IMG/VR virus record: IMGVR_UViG_2541047881_000004
Coordinates: 1-44,376 of that record
Source of the DNA: a virus
Taxonomy: Duplodnaviria; Heunggongvirae; Uroviricota; Caudoviricetes
Reading direction: 5' to 3' (one strand)
Length of the DNA stretch: 44,376 nt
Positions 1-10,240 of this stretch are shown one piece after another. Position 1 is the first letter of the stretch, and every line of letters begins with the position of its first letter. Made by a program: the position numbers and the translations under genes. The notes beneath the pieces are model-generated. The model saw nothing but the letters and a program-made list of their open reading frames with translations, had not been told where the DNA came from and made no database searches.

Positions 1-906
1 GTGGATAGCGCACGCGCCCTTATTGCCCGGGGATGGGGAGTAAGCTTAGTCAGCCGTTGTCTCCGGGTGTCGCGTGCGCAGTTGCACGTAATTCTCAGAC
101 GAACCGATGACTGGAAAGATGGTCGCCGCAGCCGTCACTCAGATGATACGGATGTGCTTCTCCGTATACACCATGTTATCGGAGAGCTGCCCACGTATGG
201 TTATCGTCGGGTATGGGCGCTGCTTCGCAGACAGGCCGAACTTGATGGTATGCCTGCGATCAATGCCAAACGTGTTTACCGGATCATGCGCCAGAATGCG
301 CTGTTGCTTGAGCGAAAAACCGCTGTACCGCCATCGAAACGGGCACATACTGGCAAAGTGGCCGTGAAAGAAAGCAATCAACGATGGTGCTCTGACGGGT
401 TCGAGTTCCGCTGTGATAACGGAGAAAAACTGCGAGTCACGTTCGCGCTGGACTGCTGTGACCGTGAGGCACTGCACTGGGCAGTCACTACGGGCGGCTT
501 CGACAGTGAAACAGTACAGGACGTAATGCTGGGAGCGGTGGAACGCCGCTTCGGCAACGAGCTTCCGGCGTCTCCAGTAGAGTGGCTGACGGATAATGGT
601 TCATGCTACCGGGCTAATGAAACACGGCAGTTTGCCCGGATGTTGGGGCTTGAACCGAAGAACACGGCGGTGCGGAGTCCGGAGAGTAACGGCATAGCAG
701 AGAGCTTCGTGAAAACGATAAAGCGTGACTACATCAGTATCATGCCTAAACCAGACGGGTTAACGGCAGCAAAGAACCTTGCAGAGGCGTTCGAGCATTA
801 TAACGAATGGCATCCGCATAGTGCACTGGGTTATCGCTCGCCACGGGAATATCTGCGGCAGCAGGCCAGTAATGGGTTAAGTGATAACAGGTGTCTGGAA
901 ATATAG
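1..906 (+). CDS. insD: IS2 transposase OrfB (InsD), 5' end lies outside the window
   Basis: 301-aa ORF from the track; integrase-core transposase ending ...[31 protein letters not shown]. Confidence 0.9.
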
Positions 907-917
907 GGGCAAATCCA
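1..917 (+). mobile_element. IS2 insertion sequence, 3' portion (window starts inside the element); right terminal repeat ends at 917
   Basis: InsD-type transposase ORF followed by terminal sequence ...GGTGTCTGGAAATATAGGGGCAAATCCA, which matches the IS2 right end as I recall it. Confidence 0.85.
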
Positions 918-1477
918 CATATATTGAAGATAGGTATAAATATCTAACAAGCCTAAAGGGTTCCGTAATAGCAATCCGTATAAAACATTACAGCACCCTA
1001 TCCAAACAGATTATACCGTCTACTGATAACATTCATGCTGAGTTAAAGTTGCTTCTTTCAGAAGTTGCGGTGCGAGGTGATAACGATTATTACCGAATGG
1101 AAGTGGAAGAGTTAATAAAGTTGTTCGAGGGGAATGTTAAAGAGGCACATCTCAAGGATGAAGCTGACGTATTTTTAAGTAAACTACATCCAATTGCAGT
1201 AGAGATTAGATATAATCTTCAGGAAATGAATATTGAGGATTTAGCAACTAAGCATGGCGTGTTGATTTCAACACTTCCGAAAAATGCCCTGCATTACGTT
1301 CTTCAGAAAATGTTTACTTGGCTCCACTCTGATAGATATGACCCAATGGGTGGCTTTTACTTGGACAAGTTAAATGAATATTCAGGCGGGCGATACAATT
1401 TTTGTTCTGAGGATGATGACAGTACAACTCTATTGAAGCTCCGGATGATGTTGCATTGGTATCATCAACAAAAATAG
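918..1477 (+). pseudogene. AT-rich ORF of unknown function whose reading frame runs straight out of the IS2 end; probably a gene remnant disrupted at its 5' end by IS2
   Basis: ORF 881..1477 is open across the IS2 boundary at 917; first ATG outside IS2 is at 1097 and has no RBS. Confidence 0.3.
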
Positions 1478-1710
1478 GCTTAGCCACGAAAACAAGCAAT
1501 ACAGTTGGAAGTTCGTGTGACCTATGCGCTAGGTATTCTGAGACGACAGTGTGACCTGCTCCCTGTTGATTAACATAGGCTGACACTAGCAACGTCCTCT
1601 ACTGGCACATAGCAGCCCCAGAGACAGTGGTGTAAAGTCATGGAGGGTCGGTGGGAGGATATTCAGTTTCATTCATGCCGAAATACGGTAAAATCTATAA
1701 TAGATGGAAA

Positions 1711-1989
1711 TCATTCAATACTCGCACTAAAGTCCACCATCCAGCCGCAGCAAGTTCTTGCATACGACGTGTCTGCGGTTTTATATAATCCCAGCCGGTC
1801 CAGTTTCCAGACAATCAACTCATCTCCACTTTTCATCACCGTAATTAATTCCTTTAACACAGGGCGATTAGCTGTTCTGCCACTGGCATATTCTTCATAA
1901 ATTCGCTCACAGCCAGCTGACTCAAGTGCAAGACGTTGCAACTCTGTATCCTGATGATTTGTTGATACACGAACATACCCGTAAATCAT
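1711..1989 (-). pseudogene. pin: Truncated serine recombinase / DNA invertase (Pin/Gin/Hin family); only about the first 68 residues are invertase-like
   Basis: N-terminus MIYGYVRVSTNHQDTELQRLALESAGCE...DELIVWKLDRLG has the catalytic Ser motif of small invertases; similarity ends near nt 1786 and the ORF stops at 92 aa, so the C-terminal HTH domain is missing. Confidence 0.6.
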
Positions 1990-1994
1990 GAGTG

Positions 1995-2021
1995 CTTCTC
2001 CTGTTGTAAAAACAGGAGAAG
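1995..2021. repeat. 27-bp near-perfect palindrome CTTCTCCTGTTGTAAAAACAGGAGAAG directly upstream of the invertase start codon
   Basis: 13-bp arms with one mismatch around a central A; contains the AGGAG RBS of pin on the minus strand; candidate recombination site remnant or regulatory hairpin. Confidence 0.35.
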
Positions 2022-2056
2022 AGGCGAAATATCACCTGATTCAGAAAAATATTTGA

Positions 2057-2530
2057 AAGGTTGGTTTGGGAGAAACGATAAATAAAGCCTCCGGAGCTAT
2101 GCAGAAATCGGCTAATGGAGCTGATATTTCTGATGTATCAGCCTTCCGAAATGCGCTCCAGTTAGGGATCGCCGCAACACGAGATGTTGGAGCAGATAAT
2201 GCCTCGAAGTTACTGGATTTAGACAGCTTCAGGTCAATGATGTCAGGGAATGGCTACATCTACATTCCATGCATTGCGACGACAGGAAACCCGGTGAAAC
2301 TTATGTTGCAGTGGGGAACGGTGGCAACACAAAAGGGAGCTGATGCTGGATATGCCTTACCATTTGCTTTTCCCTATGCAGGCTTATTTGCGACCGGAAA
2401 CCGTGGAACATCTGGCTACAATGCCGCGATGAATGTGCGTATTGCCAGCAGAACGCATATCAGTATTCAGAACTGGTCGCCATCCGGAGAGGGCACCGAA
2501 GATTGTTGTTTTATCGCGCTGGGGTATTAA
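2057..2530 (+). other. Alternative side-tail-fibre C-terminal cassette, promoterless and oriented opposite to stf
   Basis: ORF 2066..2530; like stf it ends in ...GY and shows loose similarity to the stf C-terminal region; upstream in-frame stop at 2054-2056; arrangement typical of Mu G / e14 P invertible segments. Confidence 0.55.
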
Positions 2531-2532
2531 GA

Positions 2533-2943
2533 ATGAATAAATTTTATAAAGGCTCTTTCTATCCGAAAGCACTAAAAGAGGTATATATCAGCGCCGGTTC
2601 ATGGCCTGAAAATGGCGTTGATGTTGATGATGAAACAATGGCAATTTACACAGGCGTAGCGCCACAAGGCAAAACGCTGGGGGCTGATAAAAATGGTAAT
2701 CCTGCGTGGATTGATATCCCGCCACTCTCCGCTGAACAACAGATTATTCAGGCTGAACAGAAAAGAACGGTATTGCGTTCTATGGCTGATAAGGAAATAG
2801 CCTGGAGACAGGATGCTTTTGATGCGGAAATCGCGACGGCAGAAGAAACCGCCGCGTTATCTGAATGGAAAAAATACCGGGTCTTGCTGATGCGCGTTGA
2901 TACAGCAAAACCCGTATGGCCTGTCAATCCGCAGGATATTTAA
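2533..2943 (+). CDS. tfa: Tail fibre assembly chaperone (Tfa) belonging to the alternative cassette
   Basis: 136 aa from ATG 2533; C-terminus ...[27 protein letters not shown] matches the conserved Tfa C-terminal motif (lambda Tfa ...[22 protein letters not shown]...WP). Confidence 0.7.
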   Translation: [136 protein letters not shown]

Positions 2944-3157
2944 CGGGGGCGTTGTAGGTGGTGACATATTCAAGCAGTTCTGTTGGATATGTCACCGTTG
3001 CTGCATCTCGCTCTACGTTAAATGTATCCGCTCCCCAGATAACACACTCCCTCAAAAATGCCTCCACCTCTGGCGAGACTTCAACCGCATCATCAGGTCG
3101 CTCTTGTTCAGAAACATAAAAACCAACGGTCGTTGGGCTGAAATACATATTCTCCAT
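2924..3157 (-). CDS. Short Tfa-like ORF directly downstream of stf; probably a truncated tail fibre assembly gene
   Basis: 77 aa, MENMYFSPTTVGFYVSEQERPDDAVEVSPE... resembles the N-terminal motif of small Tfa chaperones, but the conserved C-terminal region is absent; its 3' end overlaps the 3' end of the plus-strand tfa. Confidence 0.4.
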   Translation of the reverse strand: MENMYFSPTTVGFYVSEQERPDDAVEVSPEVEAFLRECVIWGADTFNVERDAATVTYPTELLEYVTTYNAPVKYPAD

Positions 3158-3159
3158 AT

Positions 3160-6030
3160 TTAGTATCCTATTGCTTCAAAATGCAAAGTCGGAATTTCGC
3201 CGAGATTGGGTGTCGTATACGACACAGTGAATCGCGTTCTTGATACGTCAGTGCCAGAATCAGTATCGCGATGCGTTGCCAGTGATTTCCCAGCCATTGA
3301 TGACTGGGTCGAAAAGCTGTAACTCGCTAGTGTTGCCAGCGTTGCTATTTGTGCATTTGGGAATTGTCTGGGGAAATTAACCCTGTAGTAATGGGTGTAG
3401 TACAGCACTCCACCAAGAGTAATTGCGTTGAAATTACCAACAGGCGTCAGTGTCACAGTACCAACCTGTCGAATCATACCATTTGGGAGAATATCCCAGG
3501 CAGTTTGTCCGTTTCGCGACATACCAAATGCGGACATGTCCGGGAGTTGATTATTACCGGTTCCGACATTACGTTTTGCCGCTTCTCCCAATTGAAGGTA
3601 TGCGAGAAGACCAGCTACATCCTTTCCACTCAAATTAGTCAGCGTATTGTCCAGCGGTTGTTTGCCCGCCAGTGCGCTCTGTACTTCGCTTTTGCTGTAG
3701 GCATCCAGATCTTTAGGCGTAAGCGTAATATCCTTCGTGCCGTCAAACGGAACGCCGTTGATATTCCGTGCAGTCTGTAGTTTTGTGGCAGTTGCAGCAT
3801 TACCAGTGGTGTTCTGATTACCCGTAGTGTTTACACCTGGAAGGTTAATATTTGCAGAACCGTCGAAAACAACTCCACCGATAGATCTTGCCGTCTGCAA
3901 TTTCGTGGCTGTAGCAGCATTTCCTGAAAGACTTGAAATAAATGGATGTGAACAGTAATAACCTCGTCCATTTTTAAAGTCCAAAATTATCTGTGCATTC
4001 GTACTTTCTGATAAAGGATCAGTTGCCCCCCACTTATAAGTGGTTTGACCAACTGCATAATCAGCCGTTGGAACAATCACATTTAATCCTTCCTCAGCAA
4101 AAATATGGATAGGGAATGCTCTTGTCTCAACGTAAAATACACTACACAAATCATCATCTTTCACGCTTGCGATAATCGAGTGTATAGCTCGCTCAGCAGT
4201 AGAATATATTGAGAAAAAACCAGCCGCATATGAATCGCGATCAGACCAACCGCCAGGCATAACAAACCCATTAAATTCACAATTATTCATGGCGTATCCG
4301 CCAGCTGAGGAATAAGTGGTGATAACCACTCGTGAGGCTAATTCATCTGCGCCACCACCAGTTCGGCGAAAGACTACAGGATACCACTTACCGCTTACTG
4401 CATTTGCAGGAGCAGAGAAAGTGTATTTTCGCATCCCCTTTTTCTTATCCACTTCACCTTTGCTGTAAACATTAATGTTACTCAGGAAGCGGCCCTTGTC
4501 TGGGATATCAGCGCCATTCTGATTCTTCGCCAATCGGCTATTCGCATTGTCATTCGCAGCTTTAACTGCCTTTGGAGTTGCGGCCAGCGATTCACTGGTG
4601 CTATCAACAGCACTGCTAAGTTTCACAACACCTTTAGTTGTAAGGCTTGCGTCTTCCATCGCAACTGCACCGGCAATCTCTTCAGCACGATCAGCAGCAG
4701 CTTCCGCACGGGTCGCAGCGGATTCAGCAGCAGTTTTGCTCTGAGATGCTGCCGTCGCACTGCCTGCCGCCTCTGTTGCTTTCGTGGATGCCGTCGTGGC
4801 GCTGCCCTTCGCTGCTGACGCCTGTCTGGTCGCCTCATCTTTTGAAGCAGACGCAGATGATGCCGATGACGCTGCCGAACTGGCGGACGATGCGGCTGCC
4901 GTTTTTGAGGATTCTGCACGGGTTTCCGACGCTTTCGCATTCGTTTCGGATGTCTTCGCTGTGGAAGCAGACCTCGCTGCTGCGCTGGCCTGTACAGCGG
5001 CTTCGCCAGCCTTCGTTGTGGCTGTTGAAGCGGACGATGCAGCACTTTCTGCCGATTTTCCGGCGGCGGTGGCACTGGCTGAGGCCTGCCCGGCACTTGT
5101 TGACGCGGCACTGGCAGACGACGCAGCCGCTGTTTTTGAGCCTGCCGCAGCTGAGGCACTCTGTCCCGCTGCCGTTTCAGAAGCCTTGGCGTTCGTCTCG
5201 GACGTTTTTGCCGCCTTCGCAGAATTTGCTGTCGCCGTTGCCGAGGAAGCTGCGCTGCTGGCGCTCGAGGCTGCGCTCGTTTCTGATGATTTTGCCGCCT
5301 CTTTTGAAGCCGACGCATCCCGGGCTGAGGTGGCAGCTTCTGACGCTTTCGTGGTTGCGGTGGATGCTGAAGTGGCTGCTGATTGTTGTGACGCTGCCGC
5401 ATTCGTTTCTGACGTTTTTGCCGCAGCGGCACTGGTGGCCGCCGCGCTTTTTGAGGACTCTGCAGCGGCAGCACTTTTTGATGCTTCAGTGGCCTTTGCT
5501 GATGCCGTTCCTGCGCTGGAAGACGCTGACTGAGCCGACGAAGCGGCCTGTCCGGCTGACGTGCTGGCTGCGCGTGCTGAGCCTGCAGCATCAGTCGCAT
5601 GGGTTGCCGCCTCACGGGCAGATGTGCCGGCATCGCCGGCTGACTTCTTCGCGGCTGCCGTGTTCTGTGCCACTGCGGACGCGTTACGCGCCACCTCTTC
5701 CACCATCAGTTCAAAACGGCGCAGTGCCTCTGGCCGGACATCATCCTCCGTCATTGCACCGAGGAAATCATTCAGTGTGCCCGGCTTTGAGTCCTCATAT
5801 ACGGTGATAATCCCGGCGTGTGACGGCGGGAATCCCTCCACCAACAGACTGACGCTGTACTGACCATACTCGACGTCCATTGTGTAACGCCCGGCTTCAT
5901 CCGGGTTTTCTGAGGCCACTGTGTTCACCACCACCGTGGTGCTGTTGCGCCTGGCCTTTAGCTGAATGGTGCAGTTTTGTATCGGCTTACCTGCGCCATC
6001 TTTCAGTACACCTGAAATCCGTACTGCCAT
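3160..6030 (-). CDS. stf: Side tail fibre protein Stf with long Ala/Ser/Thr-rich repeat region
   Basis: 956 aa; N-terminus MAVRISGVLKDGAGKPIQNCTIQLKARRNSTTVVVNTV... close to lambda Stf; internal low-complexity repeats (AKTSETNAKASET..., TSAGQASSA...). Confidence 0.9.
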   Translation of the reverse strand: MAVRISGVLKDGAGKPIQNCTIQLKARRNSTTVVVNTVASENPDEAGRYTMDVEYGQYSVSLLVEGFPPSHAGIITVYEDSKPGTLNDFLGAMTEDDVRPEALRRFELMVEEVARNASAVAQNTAAAKKSAGDAGTSAREAATHATDAAGSARAASTSAGQAASSAQSASSSAGTASAKATEASKSAAAAESSKSAAATSAAAAKTSETNAAASQQSAATSASTATTKASEAATSARDASASKEAAKSSETSAASSASSAASSATATANSAKAAKTSETNAKASETAAGQSASAAAGSKTAAASSASAASTSAGQASASATAAGKSAESAASSASTATTKAGEAAVQASAAARSASTAKTSETNAKASETRAESSKTAAASSASSAASSASSASASKDEATRQASAAKGSATTASTKATEAAGSATAASQSKTAAESAATRAEAAADRAEEIAGAVAMEDASLTTKGVVKLSSAVDSTSESLAATPKAVKAANDNANSRLAKNQNGADIPDKGRFLSNINVYSKGEVDKKKGMRKYTFSAPANAVSGKWYPVVFRRTGGGADELASRVVITTYSSAGGYAMNNCEFNGFVMPGGWSDRDSYAAGFFSIYSTAERAIHSIIASVKDDDLCSVFYVETRAFPIHIFAEEGLNVIVPTADYAVGQTTYKWGATDPLSESTNAQIILDFKNGRGYYCSHPFISSLSGNAATATKLQTARSIGGVVFDGSANINLPGVNTTGNQNTTGNAATATKLQTARNINGVPFDGTKDITLTPKDLDAYSKSEVQSALAGKQPLDNTLTNLSGKDVAGLLAYLQLGEAAKRNVGTGNNQLPDMSAFGMSRNGQTAWDILPNGMIRQVGTVTLTPVGNFNAITLGGVLYYTHYYRVNFPRQFPNAQIATLATLASYSFSTQSSMAGKSLATHRDTDSGTDVSRTRFTVSYTTPNLGEIPTLHFEAIGY

Positions 6031-6041
6031 ATTCCCCCCAC

Positions 6042-6068
6042 AAAAAAGCCCGCCTGAACCGGCGGGCT
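6042..6068 (-). terminator. Intrinsic terminator between lom and stf
   Basis: Minus-strand RNA AGCCCGCC-GGUUCA-GGCGGGCU followed by UUUUUUG. Confidence 0.6.
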
Positions 6069-6094
6069 GTCATAACACTGTGTTACCTGGCTAA

Positions 6095-6694
6095 TCAGAA
6101 TTTATAACCAACACCCACGATGAAACCGTCAGTGCGCCAGTCGCCACTGCCGGAGCCTTCATAAGCAATATCAATGGCCACGGATTCGATCGGGTTAAAC
6201 TGCACGCCAGCTCCCCACGCCAGAGACGTGTTGCTGTGGCGACCGTCATCACTTCCGGTCAGCACATCGTGCGTTTTCCCCTTGTTGTCAGTTACGCGGA
6301 GATAATCCCCGGAGAACGTCGAAACACGGCTGTAAGCCACACCTGCCATCGCATAAGCACTGAACCATTCATTCACGCGTACAGATGGCCCCGCCATCAT
6401 GCTGAACCAGCGGTTACGCACTGAATCTTCATGCCAGCGGGTATCGCTGTAATGCGTTTTTTGCTCATCTTTGGCATTGGCATAACTGAATGACGTCACC
6501 AGCCCCAGCGTGTCCGTAAATTCATAACGGTATTTCACGTTAATGCCCTTCAGGTCATCACTGCCTGGCATATCAGTATGGGCCTGAAGATACCCGGCGC
6601 TTAGTGTGGACTGATGCTCTGCTGCGCTCGCTGGCGTACCAGCGGCAACCAGCCAGACTACTGCGGACAGAATAACAGCACATAATTTACGCAT
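6095..6694 (-). CDS. lom: Lom-family outer membrane protein (Ail/OmpX/PagC beta-barrel family)
   Basis: 199 aa with signal peptide; C-terminus ...IAYEGSGSGDWRTDGFIVGVGYKF as in lambda Lom. Confidence 0.85.
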   Translation of the reverse strand: MRKLCAVILSAVVWLVAAGTPASAAEHQSTLSAGYLQAHTDMPGSDDLKGINVKYRYEFTDTLGLVTSFSYANAKDEQKTHYSDTRWHEDSVRNRWFSMMAGPSVRVNEWFSAYAMAGVAYSRVSTFSGDYLRVTDNKGKTHDVLTGSDDGRHSNTSLAWGAGVQFNPIESVAIDIAYEGSGSGDWRTDGFIVGVGYKF

Positions 6695-6760: not shown

Positions 6761-9700
6761 TCAGCTGATACTGATGCCTGCGGTGGCTTTCTTCATCACC
6801 ACAACCAGCAAATCGCTGATACTTGCTGTGGGATACCAGCCATTTACCCACCATGCTGATACCGAAAACTCCAGTGTCATTACGCCACTGCCTGCAGGCA
6901 TATCAATAACACCCGTGTAAATCAGAGTATTATCCAGAGCCGTTCGGTTATAAATTTCAGCCCCGTTTTTCTTCACTATCAGGCGGCATGACGAATAAGT
7001 ATCGCTATTCTCCCGTTCATGTCTGGCACCGCTGAAAGCCACCGCTGGAATAACAATTTGCCGGTCAAACGGCTGATCGTCATAAACCCTGACGGTAATG
7101 GTCCCTGATGGCCACCGTTCCGGTGCACGGGAGTCACGGGGGAAAGCTTTGCCCACTGTTTTAACGAGATCGCCTTCAATCTGGTTCGCGGACAGTTTTC
7201 CCAGAACCCGGCAGTTCTCGTTAATCGTGACGTTGTTGAGCGTCCCGGAGTTCGCATTCACGTTACCGCTGATATCGGCATTTTTTGCCGTCAGCCGCCC
7301 GTCCGGTGTCAGGGAAAATGCCGGAGGATTACCGCCGCTGGTAATGGTGGGAGCCGTCAGATATTTCAGGAACACTTCATTCATAAATATCTGATCGCCC
7401 TGACCAACAAACATCGGCTTTGTGTTGCCATTCGCAGGATTAATCATCGCAATCCTGTCCGCCGCCAGCAGCACCTGACTCTGCATACCGTCAGGGGTAT
7501 TCTCAATACCGGCACCAATACCCGCGATATAAAGGCGTCCGTCCTGCATCTGCTGCAGCTTCACAGCCCACATGCTGTTCAGGTTATTATTTGTATCAAC
7601 CTGAACCTTCTGTATCTGCTGAATTGCCGCACTCTGGTCTTCCAGTTTCTTATTGACGGTCTGCGTGATTTCATTGCTGACATCCGTAATGGACGTCCTG
7701 ATTTCAGCCAGGTCAGGCGCAAGCTGACCGTTATCAATCTGCGTCCACAGCTCCTGAGCCAGATGGCTTTTCCCTATCTCTCCTTTGAAAAAATCCAGAT
7801 AGCCGGATGCATCATCACTCGGCTGGCCAACAGCCTCCACAAATGCCGATTTGCCAACGGTGTTCACACTGCGGATGTAAAAATAATAATCATGGCCCGG
7901 TTTGATATTGATACTGGCGGCTATCCAGTACAGCGCCGTGCCAAGATAGCGGGCTGTGGTTTCAACCTGCCTGATATCGGTAATCCGCGTTTCCGAGAAC
8001 CAGAACTCAAACTGTACCGTCGGATCATAAACCGCAAGATGCGGCGTGGCAGTTATCTGAAAATAGCCCGGCGTCAGCTCAATCCGCGACGGCGCTGCCG
8101 GTGCGGCAATCCGGAACGATACCGACGCCGGATCGCCCTGCTGCCCCCACGCATTTACTGCCCGGACTGTCAGCCTGTAGTTCCCCAGCGCCAGTTGCCT
8201 GAAGCGGTATGTGGTTTCCGTCGTCCTGGCCGTGCTGACCAGCCGCTCACTGCCGTCGTCCGCTGCCACGGTCAGACGGAGCAGGAAGCTCACGCCCTTC
8301 ACCACCTTCGGCGTGTCCCAGCGCGCCAGCACCTGGTATTCCCCGCTGTCTGCGGTGACTTCGGCGGTCAGGTGCTGCACCGCTGGCGGCGTGACACCAT
8401 TCACCGTGCCGCTCTGGTCGCCGTCAAAGTGCGCCCCGTTATCCACGATGGCCTCTTTTTCCGGTACATGCTGCACGGCAGTGATGGCATACGTGCCGTC
8501 GTCGTTCTCACGGATACTCACGCAGCGGAACAGGCGCTGGCGCAGCGTCGGCAGCTTCAGCCCCCACACGCTGTATTCAGCAACACCGTCAGGAACACGG
8601 CTCACTTTTACCTTCACGCCGTCGGTGACGGACTGAACCTCCACGCTGACCGGATTGCCACTTCCGTCAACCAGGCTTATCAGCGTGGTACCGGAGGATG
8701 GCAGCGTGATTTCACGGTCGAGCGTCAGCGTCCGGGTCTGGCTGTTCACCGCCAGCACGCGCCCGCCGGTGCTGATACCGGCATAGTCATCATCGCAGAT
8801 TTCAATGACATCGCCCGGCACATGGCGAAGCCCTTCTGCGCCCACGCTGAAATCCACGGTCTGCGTTTCCAGCAGTTCCGTTTTAATCAGCCACAGCCCG
8901 GCGCGGTGTGCCTGCCCCCGGCTGGTACAGCCAAAGGCATCCATCTTCGTAACATTACGACCGTAACGGGCAATGGCCTGCGTATCTTCAACAAGCTCTG
9001 TCGCCGTCTCCCAGCCGTTATCCGGGTCAATCCAGTTCACCTCAACGGCATTATGGCGGTCCTTCAGGGCGCTGAAGCTGTAGCGGAACGGCGCGCCATC
9101 ATCCGGCATCACCACATTACTGCGGTTATAGGTCCACACCTTATCCGACGGTCGGTCCTGCACGAACGTCAGCGTCTGCCCGTTCCATACCGGCATACAG
9201 CGCATCGCCGAGCAGAAATCGCTGAGCACATCCCACGCCTTACGTTGTGTGGTCAGCCAGGCATTACAGGTGATGCGCGGCTCCGTGCCGCCAAAACCGT
9301 CCGGCACCGACTGGTCGCAGTACTGGCCGATGACATACAGCGCCCATTTATCCACATCTGCCGCACCAAGACGTTTCCCCATGCCGTAGCGCGGATGGGT
9401 CAGCATATCCCACAGACACCAGGCCATGTTGTTGCTGTATGCTGGCTTAAACGTTCCATCCCAGATACCGCTGTATTGCCGCGTCTGCGGGTTATAGTTC
9501 GACGGCACCTGCAGAATACGCCCGCGAAGATGATAATTACGGCTCACCTGCTGGCTGCCGAACTGCTCCGAATCCACCTGTACGCCGACCAGTGCCGTGT
9601 TCGGGTAGCACTGTTTCACATCGATGATTTCGGTGTATGACGACCAGAGCGTTTTGTTCTGCAGCTGGTCTGTGGTGCTGTCCGGCGTCATCCTGCGCAT

Positions 9701-10240
9701 CCGGATACTGAACGGGCGCGGCGGCAGGTTATCCACCACCACCGAGGCCAGATACTGTGAAGTGGTTTTACCCTTAATGGTGATGTCTTTTTCCGTCACC
9801 CAGCCACCGTTACGTTGTATCTGAACCAGCAGGCGGACTTCCGATGGATTCCTGTCCCCCTTTGAGGTGGTTTCCACCAGTGCCTGCACGCCGAAGGTAA
9901 AGCGCAGACGGTCGATGTTTGCAGACGTGATGGTCCGGGTGATCGGCGTGTCATATTTCACTTCCGTACCCAGCACCGTCTCGGATCCGGAGGATTCAAA
10001 TCCCTCCGGCGGTGTCTGCTCCTGCTCACCGGCCCGGAACACCACCGTGACGCCGGAGATATTGGTATTCCCCTCACTGTCCAGCACCGGTGTACTGTTC
10101 AGCAGCACGCTTTTTAATCCATCCACCGGACCTTCTATCGGCCCTTCGCTGATGGCATCGATCACACTCAGTAACTGCGTGGATTTCAGGTTGTCCTTCG
10201 CTTCGCGCGGGGTATGCCCCTTACTGCTGCCTTTACCCAT
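6761..10240 (-). CDS. J: Tail tip host-specificity protein J
   Basis: 1159 aa; lambda J-like over its whole length as recalled. Confidence 0.95.

Follow-up and report, generated by a model that had tools for sequence, protein, structure and literature searches.

The side tail fiber locus

The window, that is, the whole stretch of 44,376 nucleotides of an IMG/VR virus record that was analyzed, contains a side tail fiber gene, stf, at positions 3160..6030 on the minus strand, which codes for 956 amino acids and a stop codon. The earlier note had named this gene as stf, and its identity is confirmed by the list of open reading frames, by the Pfam domain PF08400 (phage_tail_N) at the N-terminus of the product (aa 1-134, E 1.2e-71) and by matches to PHROG tail fiber families (E 1e-133). 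The gene order agrees as well: J (6761-10240), lom (6095-6694; Ail/Lom match, E 3e-127) and stf all lie on the minus strand and follow each other as in phage lambda.

Four parts can be distinguished along the protein, all encoded on the minus strand. The N-terminal collar domain (aa 1-94, 5749..6030) matches the Ur-lambda "Tail fiber protein" of PDB entries 9e7m/9mgh (E 3.3e-49), and in that phage it attaches the fiber to the tail where gpV meets gpM (Yu et al. 2025, PMC12617516). It is followed by the predicted proximal coiled-coil shaft, or PCoil (aa 100-463, 4642..5733), with about 52 unbroken heptads, delimited by autocorrelation, heptad layout, an AlphaFold2 (AF2) model and homology to lambda. 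The shaft is followed by a junction motif, TTKGVVKLSSAVDSTSESLAATPKAVK..., at aa 464-498 (4537..4641), which is kept in lambda, phi458 and StfR; the surrounding region (aa 454-521) matches the tail fiber protein S of phage Mu (PDB 5yvq, 8ju3; E 1e-16 to 1e-18). The remainder (aa 499-956, 3163..4536) is a distal mosaic, as defined by tblastn and Pfam. In tblastn comparisons with phages, aa 459-730 share 74% identity with P2-like phage fibers and aa 700-956 share 96% identity with phi456/phi458; the low-complexity filter masked the shaft in these searches, such that the coverage figures understate the similarity. Within the distal part, a GNAATATKLQTAR..FDG motif occurs twice, at aa 703-729 and at aa 743-769, and the C-terminal tip is gp53-like (aa 848-956; PF21882, E 6e-5, just under the Pfam cut-off). 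The fibers of phi458 and of strain PT62 part from the window sequence directly after the junction motif, which, judging from these alignments, is the point at which different distal modules are joined.

With a downstream tfa-like reading frame of just 77 aa and a truncated invertase, the prophage of the window may not produce a working fiber. Invertase crossover sites were sought as inverted repeats of at least 20 nt (11-nt seed), and none was found in positions 1-6100 of the window. A complete Caudo_TAP gene lies convergent to stf at 2503-2943 (plus strand), an arrangement shared with phage phi458 and strain EM06-18-14. A 198-aa reading frame at 881-1477 has no match in Pfam, PHROGs or PADLOC.

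Composition and heptad periodicity of the shaft

The central region of the fiber is extreme in its composition. Ala (39%), Ser (23%) and Thr (12%) together make up 74% of aa 114-456, which contain 3.8% Gly and are devoid of Cys, Phe, Leu, Met, Pro, Trp and Tyr. The GC content of the DNA of this region is 0.615, compared to 0.468 in the rest of stf and 0.516 in the entire window. A region of about 400 residues made up of degenerate repeats had been reported here from the sequence. The repeats are real, yet they extend over about 343-364 residues (nt 4642-5733) rather than over positions 4400-5700. Two of the motifs quoted at the time occur precisely as given, AKTSETNAKASET at aa 274 and at aa 358 and ATTKAGEAA at aa 337, but SAGQASSA is absent, the actual sequences being SAGQAASSA and SAGQASASA.

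Autocorrelation of the protein sequence reveals peaks of identity exclusively at multiples of seven residues. At lags of 7, 14 and so on up to 56, identity is 0.37-0.43, compared to approximately 0.20 at other lags, and the corresponding z scores, referred to 500 composition-preserving shuffles, are 7.3-10.5. A single unbroken register with the consensus x-x-S-A-x-x-A runs through aa 100-463, with Ala in 46 of 49 heptads at position 7 and in 35 of 49 at position 4, and Ser in 37 of 49 at position 3. The heptads of aa 114-449 are of this type; the first three of the shaft have hydrophobic or Ala residues at a and d (L/F, V/V, A/V), and the heptad of aa 450-456 has A/V. In coiled-coil terms, Ala would occupy both core positions (a, d) and Ser the flanking g position. 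The region had been described as low complexity, a label that does not suit a coiled coil whose heptads keep strict phase. No higher-order period was detected at lags of 1-39 heptads, including 15 heptads, in either protein or DNA. Likewise, the 956-aa Stf contains no run of four or more collagen-type G-X-Y triplets.

The shaft belongs to a known type of structure, namely the three-stranded coiled coil of lambda-type side tail fibers, termed "PCoil" by Ghosh et al. (2012, PMC3368898), who described its heptad as A-x-x-A/S-x-x-S and its length differences as multiples of 7. The region studied here likewise follows directly after PF08400 and combines seven-residue periodicity with Ala at both core positions.

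Age and stability of the repeats

The earlier note regarded the repeat DNA as prone to slippage and recombination and as a possible assembly hazard. In its strongest form, this reading would make the region an unstable, low-complexity DNA repeat, whose copy number often changes or is mis-assembled. Many database homologues are indeed "partial" and lie at contig ends, and rare events of length change are known, as described below. The DNA itself, however, lacks the high-identity head-to-tail copies and long exact repeats of a slippage-prone array. Tandem Repeats Finder returned just three scraps of 1.9-2.4 copies in the region, and identity within the direct-repeat families is 60-88% over stretches of 20-45 nt. 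Exact repeats within the shaft do not exceed 14 nt, and none of its 15-mers or 21-mers recurs anywhere in the window. This length is below any assembler k-mer size and short of the 20-30 bp or so required for RecA-dependent recombination. The best-matching blocks of 35 aa share 71% identity in protein but only 56% in DNA, and the duplications must therefore be old. The shaft repeats are thus diverged duplications of long standing that have been kept alike at the level of the protein, and not an unstable array. Substitutions relative to K-12 stfR prevail at third codon positions (59, versus 18 and 9 at the others), and the codon changes in stf comprise 51 synonymous and 27 non-synonymous ones.

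Slippage or assembly collapse within stf is consequently not supported. The real hazard for assembly is the occurrence of several prophage copies, at least 90% identical, in one genome: genomes with any match have from 1 to 10-14 matching places, with a median of 2.

Shaft length among relatives

Compared with lambda orf-401, the window Stf is 80% identical over the N-terminal 500 aa, and the alignment has a single gap before the C-terminal divergence. This gap is exactly 105 aa (15 x 7), corresponds to aa 304-408 of the window protein (4807..5121, minus strand) and accounts for approximately 52 heptads versus 37 in lambda. The statement in the earlier note that the fiber is longer than that of lambda is therefore accurate. 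Since no higher-order repeat was found, the extra block is not a recognizable copy of its neighbor.

The repeat array had been called expanded, but the shaft is not unusually long. Its length is the same in the K-12 Rac StfR (449 of 498 ungapped identities over aa 1-498), in the fiber of strain PT62 (497/498 identity) and in the viable phage phi458. Moreover, of 5426 complete E. coli genomes, 3582 (~66%) carry 80% or more of the coil DNA at a single place, and among the 120 closest database proteins, 118 equal the window either in anchor spacing or in heptad count. The length is ordinary, and lambda is the shorter variant.

The comparison of fiber lengths that had been suggested in the earlier note gave a range of 20 to 67 heptads. 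In 75 IMG/VR relatives, the counts are 20, 21, 34, 36, 37, 38, 52 or 67, always in register; 52 is the commonest class in this sample, the class frequencies of which are biased, as its 80 loci were picked as the nearest to the query N-terminal domain by that domain only. The junction, in the form TKKG(I/V)VQLSS, comes after 36, 37, 38, 52 or 67 whole heptads, and in one locus 21 heptads are followed by G-X-Y repeats of the EPcl type. The lengths of the members hence differ by multiples of seven, with one exception: protein P0064 is 3 aa shorter due to a deletion in a SSASSASS microrepeat. Its anchor spacing of 368 is genuine, and it is the sole real register change among the 120 close homologues. 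A second spacing, 415, also seemed not to be a multiple of 7; in that case, the regular expression had passed over the first junction motif and matched its second copy. A further rare event is a near-perfect 315-bp tandem duplication, equal to 15 heptads, in IMG/VR locus L017. Against the wide conservation of length, these events leave an unstable DNA repeat very improbable as an account of the region.

Structure and proposed role of the shaft

The Ala/Ser/Thr-rich center of the fiber is very probably its proximal shaft, a parallel three-stranded α-helical coiled coil of about 52 uninterrupted heptads. The trimeric state, the helicity and the function as a rod are transferred from the literature on homologues. 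Lambda gpStf was divided by Yu et al. (2025, PMC12617516) into a collar (1-91), a linker (92-101), a proximal trimeric coiled coil (102-393), a hinge and a distal part. In the same study, the Ur-lambda fiber is a homotrimer, four fibers are attached to a dodecameric collar, cryo-EM displays a trimeric bundle where the side fiber begins, with a proximal domain that behaves in classification as a rigid moving body, and slices from cryo-ET exhibit hinged side fibers. For the PCoil of EPclA, circular dichroism revealed an α-helical protein with cooperative and reversible melting (Ghosh et al. 2012, PMC3368898).

The predicted structure is compatible with such a shaft. A single-sequence AF2 model of the monomer (aa 95-520) is almost all helix, as in the PCoil, with helices at model residues 4-180, 210-295, 299-387 and 391-410 and moderate confidence (mean pLDDT 66.6). 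The monomer folds back on itself, as expected of one chain from a trimer. Of relevance to such models, the AlphaFold3 fold of full-length gpStf is inconsistent with cryo-ET (Yu et al. 2025, PMC12617516). A search of the PDB with the coil alone returned nothing at E <= 1; the atomic packing of the all-Ala core is consequently inferred, as there is no PDB structure with a coil-like sequence. An Ala/Ala core is atypical of a stable coiled coil.

The same composition might suggest an intrinsically disordered, flexible Ala/Ser/Thr linker that serves as an entropic tether and forms no folded rod. The abundance of small polar residues and Ala, the lack of aromatics and Leu over aa 114-456, the masking of the region by the BLAST low-complexity filter and the moderate AF2 confidence are all in line with this view. 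A tether would nevertheless have no reason to maintain a strict 7-residue register over some 50 repeats or to confine its insertions and deletions to 7n. In addition, Pro is absent, Gly is scarce, AF2 predicts helix, and both the helical PCoil homologue and the rigid-body proximal domain of Ur-lambda speak for a folded structure, such that a disordered linker is highly unlikely.

In the coiled-coil shaft favored here, three collar domains would be seated where the tail tube meets the tip and connected by short linkers to the rod. The latter would act as a stiff spacer that keeps the hinge, the distal fiber and the receptor-binding tip off the tail, whereby the fiber could reach the cell surface before the central fiber. 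The number of heptads would set the length of the shaft, and this length would change only in whole heptads because other insertions or deletions break the register. With a coiled-coil rise of about 0.148 nm per residue, the shaft would measure approximately 54 nm, compared to approximately 38 nm in lambda, and the 15 extra heptads would contribute about 15.5 nm. The earlier proposal that the repeats may tune fiber length is compatible with the spacing of the natural classes by whole heptads. Any adaptive value of length is conjectural, and it is a tentative and rather doubtful idea that heptad number is a selected molecular ruler, in which classes of about 20, 34-38, 52 and 67 would adapt the reach of the side fiber to its distal module or to how thick the surface layer of the host (O-antigen or capsule) is, with 15 heptads as a preferred unit of change. 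A step of this size was seen twice, between lambda and the window and between L017 and the window.

Alternative reading frames

Long open frames overlie the shaft on both strands between 4623 and 5807. They include reading frames of 336 aa (4623..5633, minus strand), 386 aa (4647..5807, plus strand) and 249 aa (4784..5533, plus strand), the last being the counterpart of lambda orf206b. The view that this GC-rich DNA generates spurious frames is consistent with its codon usage: the high GC content and the open alternative frames both result from GCN/TCN/ACN codons, and out-of-frame stops are few because the sequence is built of GCN/TCN/ACN/AAA/GAA codons. In the in-register antisense frame, the 26 stops correspond to 26 TCA codons. 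Spurious frames of this kind have been annotated in GenBank as orf206b in lambda and as the Orf44/45 fragments in phi458; public records also contain a pseudogene call in EM06-18-14 and several homologues under the name "short-chain fatty acid transporter".

A real overlapping gene, for example at 4784..5533, is hardly credible despite long frames in three other registers, similar annotations in lambda and phi458 and a coding-like ratio in one antisense frame (51 synonymous to 28 non-synonymous changes versus K-12 stfR), since that frame has its wobble positions in common with stf, from which the ratio derives, and is interrupted by 1-3 stops in each of the 34 distinct versions, and since the fully open antisense frame (5 to 73) and the +1 sense frame (10 to 68) lack such a ratio and the stop counts of the other open frames vary among versions. 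The ratio is thus no evidence of antisense coding; the synonymous/non-synonymous test fails for a wobble-sharing antisense frame, and the conservation of stop codons was used there instead.

Implications

For annotation, the locus is best recorded as one continuous stf with a coiled-coil shaft, the alternative frames being by-products despite the public records. For the construction of chimeric lambda Stf delivery particles, it is of use that the natural variants described here differ only by whole heptads, over a span of some 20 to 67. The junction that follows the shaft is the natural swap point in fiber engineering. Among deposited structures, none displays the packing of a trimeric coil of some 50 nm with an all-Ala core and flanking Ser.

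Comparison with known systems

The closest parallel is the side tail fiber gpStf of Ur-lambda, reportedly described by Hendrix and Duda in 1992. Both share the position after J and lom, the collar, the linker, the heptad shaft and a junction of the form KG(I/V)V.LSS...LAATPKAVK. The window shaft, however, is 15 heptads longer, and its distal half combines a middle resembling Mu S and P2 H with a gp53-like tip, whereas the lambda tip is gp37-like and binds OmpC. StfR of the K-12 Rac prophage (WP_000279097.1, 1120 aa) is identical in shaft length and register and similar at the start of the distal part, yet its distal part is longer and is adjoined by intact tfaR and pinR genes, in contrast to the 77-aa tfa-like frame and truncated invertase of the window.

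The PCoil of EPclA/B, collagen-like proteins of EHEC prophages, shares the Ala/Ser-rich heptads after PF08400 and lengths of 7n (Ghosh et al. 2012, PMC3368898). Its shaft of about 20 heptads has more Glu and leads into a collagen triple helix, unlike the approximately 52 heptads of the window, where no G-X-Y run occurs. Finally, the 953-aa fiber of phi458 (OP434518), an isolated phage with E. coli MC1061 as its listed host, has its shaft length and its C-terminal 257 aa in common with the window fiber, but carries another module at aa ~500-700. In its GenBank record, the fiber gene is split into fragments and accompanied by antisense "hypothetical proteins".

The heptad shaft of the side tail fibre

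The side tail fibre gene, stf, is an ORF of 956 residues (3160..6030), as the earlier note had stated. It is on the minus strand and, as in lambda, comes after a gene resembling J (6761-10240) and one of the Ail/Lom type (6095-6694; E 3e-127). The first 134 residues of Stf match the Pfam family PF08400, "Prophage tail fibre N-terminal" (E 1.2e-71), and residues 1-94 resemble the Ur-lambda tail fibre collar domain (PDB 9e7m/9mgh, E 3.3e-49). Residues 114-456 are composed of 39% Ala, 23% Ser and 12% Thr, and are devoid of Cys, Phe, Leu, Met, Pro, Trp and Tyr. The Ala/Ser/Thr-rich region noticed earlier is therefore real, yet it comprises ~343-364 residues (nt 4642-5733) rather than about 400 at 4400-5700, and its quoted motif SAGQASSA is approximate only. 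Its DNA is indeed GC-rich (61.5%, versus 46.8% in the remainder of stf).

When the sequence is laid out in rows of seven, a single unbroken heptad register extends from residue 100 to residue 463. Identity of the shaft with itself reaches 0.37-0.43 at each multiple of seven residues (z = 7.3-10.5, relative to 500 shuffles of the same composition) and is flat elsewhere, at ~0.16-0.25. Since peaks occur only at these lags, the register is unbroken and no higher-order period appeared at any of the 39 heptad lags tested, in either protein or DNA, the repeat unit is the heptad. Position 7 is Ala in 46/49 heptads, position 4 is Ala in 35/49 (Lys or Glu in the others) and position 3 is Ser in 37/49; the two Ala columns recur with the 3-4 spacing of coiled-coil a and d positions. 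Positions 4 and 7 are likewise hydrophobic or Ala in the opening heptads PEALRRF (L/F), ELMVEEV (V/V) and ARNASAV (A/V) and in EEIAGAV (residues 450-456; A/V), while the final heptad, AMEDASL, carries Asp and Leu. The description "low complexity" thus misreads an array of phased heptads, and the longer motifs noticed earlier are scattered relics of old duplications.

DNA repeats and alternative reading frames

The earlier suggestion that the array is prone to slippage is a misreading of its DNA. Tandem Repeats Finder returned just three scraps from the shaft, each of ~2 copies, the longest exact repeat within the region is 14 nt, and no shaft 15-mer or 21-mer was found again on either strand of the 44-kb window. 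The direct-repeat families share 60-88% identity across 20-45 nt, with spacings that are mostly multiples of 21 nt, and the best-matching 35-residue blocks are 71% identical in protein and only 56% in DNA. Neither slippage during replication, nor efficient homologous unequal crossing-over, nor collapse by a k-mer assembler finds support in the shaft DNA.

Long spurious ORFs do occur in the repeat DNA, as had been claimed, with 249-386 codons in three alternative frames. Comparison with stfR, the side tail fibre gene of the E. coli K-12 Rac prophage, places 59 substitutions at the third stf codon position and 18 and 9 at the others. The stf frame exhibits 51 synonymous and 27 non-synonymous codon changes, versus 10 and 68 in the open sense +1 frame and 5 and 73 in the fully open antisense frame. 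One antisense frame (51/28) mimics the stf ratio because it shares wobble positions with stf; it contains 1-3 stops in each of the 34 distinct versions examined. The in-register antisense frame has 26 stops, corresponding to 26 TCA codons. These patterns mark the alternative ORFs as by-products of codon composition.

In public records, antisense "hypothetical" ORFs are annotated inside the shaft (lambda orf206b; Orf44/45 of the isolated Escherichia phage phi458), and stf is split or pseudogenised (phi458 Orf46/47; "missing C-terminus" in strain EM06-18-14). These annotations lie at 5148-5768 (-) of lambda NC_001416 (L002), 3437-4735 (-) of phi458 (L001) and 2571-4067 of locus L085. Four close homologues (P0004, P0013, P0019 and P0037) are misnamed "short-chain fatty acid transporter" in NCBI/nr, and the majority of the top 120 Stf homologues are "partial", stopping at contig ends.

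The distal fibre and the flanking region

The motif GNAATATKLQTAR(S/N)I(G/N)GV.FDG occurs twice, 40 residues apart, in distal Stf (residues 703-769; 3724-3924, minus strand), and PHROG matches at residues 700-800 indicate that it is common to many myovirus and siphovirus fibres. Convergent with stf, positions 1711-3157 are what is left of an invertible segment encoding tail-fibre tips. Directly behind the stf stop codon comes a 77-residue ORF with a weak match to the Tfa N-terminus (2924-3157, minus strand). The segment also contains a full gene for tail fibre assembly (PF02413, E 3e-31; 2503-2943, plus strand) and an alternative cassette for the fibre tip, which ends in ...FIALGY (PF21882, E 1e-8; 2066-2530, plus strand). 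Its DNA invertase is shortened to 92 residues, the Resolvase N-terminal half (1711-1989, minus strand). A search of window positions 1-6100 with an 11-nt seed revealed no inverted repeats of at least 20 nt, and the switch is thus probably frozen. The same layout is found in phi458 and EM06-18-14.

Adjoining the remnant, an IS3-family type transposase ORF (1-906, plus strand; rve/rve_3/HTH_21 domains) begins at base 1 and may extend upstream beyond the window start. The low-GC island at ~900-1500 (0.37-0.39 GC) contains a 198-residue ORF (881-1477, plus strand) that has no Pfam, PHROGs or PADLOC match; lying between the IS and what remains of the invertase, it could be cargo or a moron gene.

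Shaft lengths among relatives

The comparison of fibre lengths among related prophages, which the earlier note had proposed, covered 80 IMG/VR loci retrieved with the N-terminal 113 residues alone, heptads being counted from the fixed PEALRRF anchor. Eight classes emerged (20, 21, 34, 36, 37, 38, 52 and 67 heptads), the largest being that of 52 (35 proteins). Ala-heptad segments of at least 35 residues share the phase of the window's shaft, with the lone exception of a short segment (residues 312-349) in L059, and the junction motif TKKG(I/V)VQLSS follows 36, 37, 38, 52 or 67 whole heptads. A single protein of the 120 nearest in the database, P0064, is 3 residues short in the SSASSASS microrepeat. 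The 21-heptad shaft continues into G-X-Y collagen repeats, as in L024; this protein and those of L026, L048 and L053 (434-437 residues, shaft leading directly into collagen repeats) are of the EPclA type of Ghosh et al. 2012 (PMC3368898). The 67 heptads of the 809-residue Stf in L017 (5100-5742 of IMGVR_UViG_2660237933_000006) result from a near-perfect 315-bp (15-heptad) tandem duplication, perfect along a 273-nt run. Either this duplication is a very recent event, in which case 15-heptad steps can arise, or the contig is mis-assembled.

The window's shaft compared with known systems

The region following PF08400 in EHEC prophage fibre proteins was studied by Ghosh et al. 2012 (PMC3368898) as "low-complexity", and described as an A-x-x-A/S-x-x-S heptad with lengths that differ by multiples of seven. 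In the Ur-lambda gpStf resolved by Yu et al. 2025 (PMC12617516), residues 1-91 form the collar domain and 92-101 a linker. Residues 102-393 make up the proximal coiled coil, which is trimeric, and 394-422 the hinge, after which come a gp37-like distal part and an OmpC-binding tip. Four such trimeric fibres sit on a dodecameric collar where gpV meets gpM. A single-chain AF2 model of residues 95-520 of the window's Stf is nearly all-helical (mean pLDDT 66.6) and folds back upon itself, as would be expected of one chain from a trimer. A PDB search with the shaft sequence gave zero matches at E <= 1, so that no deposited structure shows its atomic packing. Judging from the literature, the trimeric helical rod would hold the distal receptor-binding part out sideways from the tail, and the side fibres would thereby contact the cell ahead of the central fibre. 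This analysis itself establishes the shaft's heptad register, its homology and its quantised lengths, and the suggestion that the array sets fibre length is reasonable.

An artefactual copy number is very unlikely, because other sequences agree: StfR has the same shaft length and register (449/498 identities, ungapped), strain PT62 is identical at 497/498 residues, phi458 has an identical shaft length, and EM06-18-14, itself a complete genome, runs collinearly with window positions 2000-6100 at 98.0% identity. At least 80% of a 1151-nt coil query is present in one place in 3582 of 5426 complete E. coli genomes, the sampled matches with ~90% coverage or more all being single ungapped pieces. 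The assembly hazard foreseen earlier is not supported for the internal repeats; the real hazards of assembly and annotation come from the several stf copies per genome at least 90% identical (median 2, up to 10-14) and from the alternative frames that stay open. As the earlier note said, Stf is longer than that of lambda, which is shorter by 105 residues in a single alignment gap (window residues 304-408) of exactly 15 heptads. In textbook geometry, coiled coils rise ~0.148 nm per residue, and the window's 364-residue shaft would thus measure ~54 nm and lambda's 259 residues ~38 nm, a difference of ~15.5 nm. To call the array "expanded" is nevertheless a misreading, given the same length in StfR, phi458 and the 3582 genomes; the length appears to be the commonest one in E. 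coli prophages and nothing special. Real, correctly located and ordinary, the region is a coiled-coil shaft already known from side tail fibres of the lambda type.
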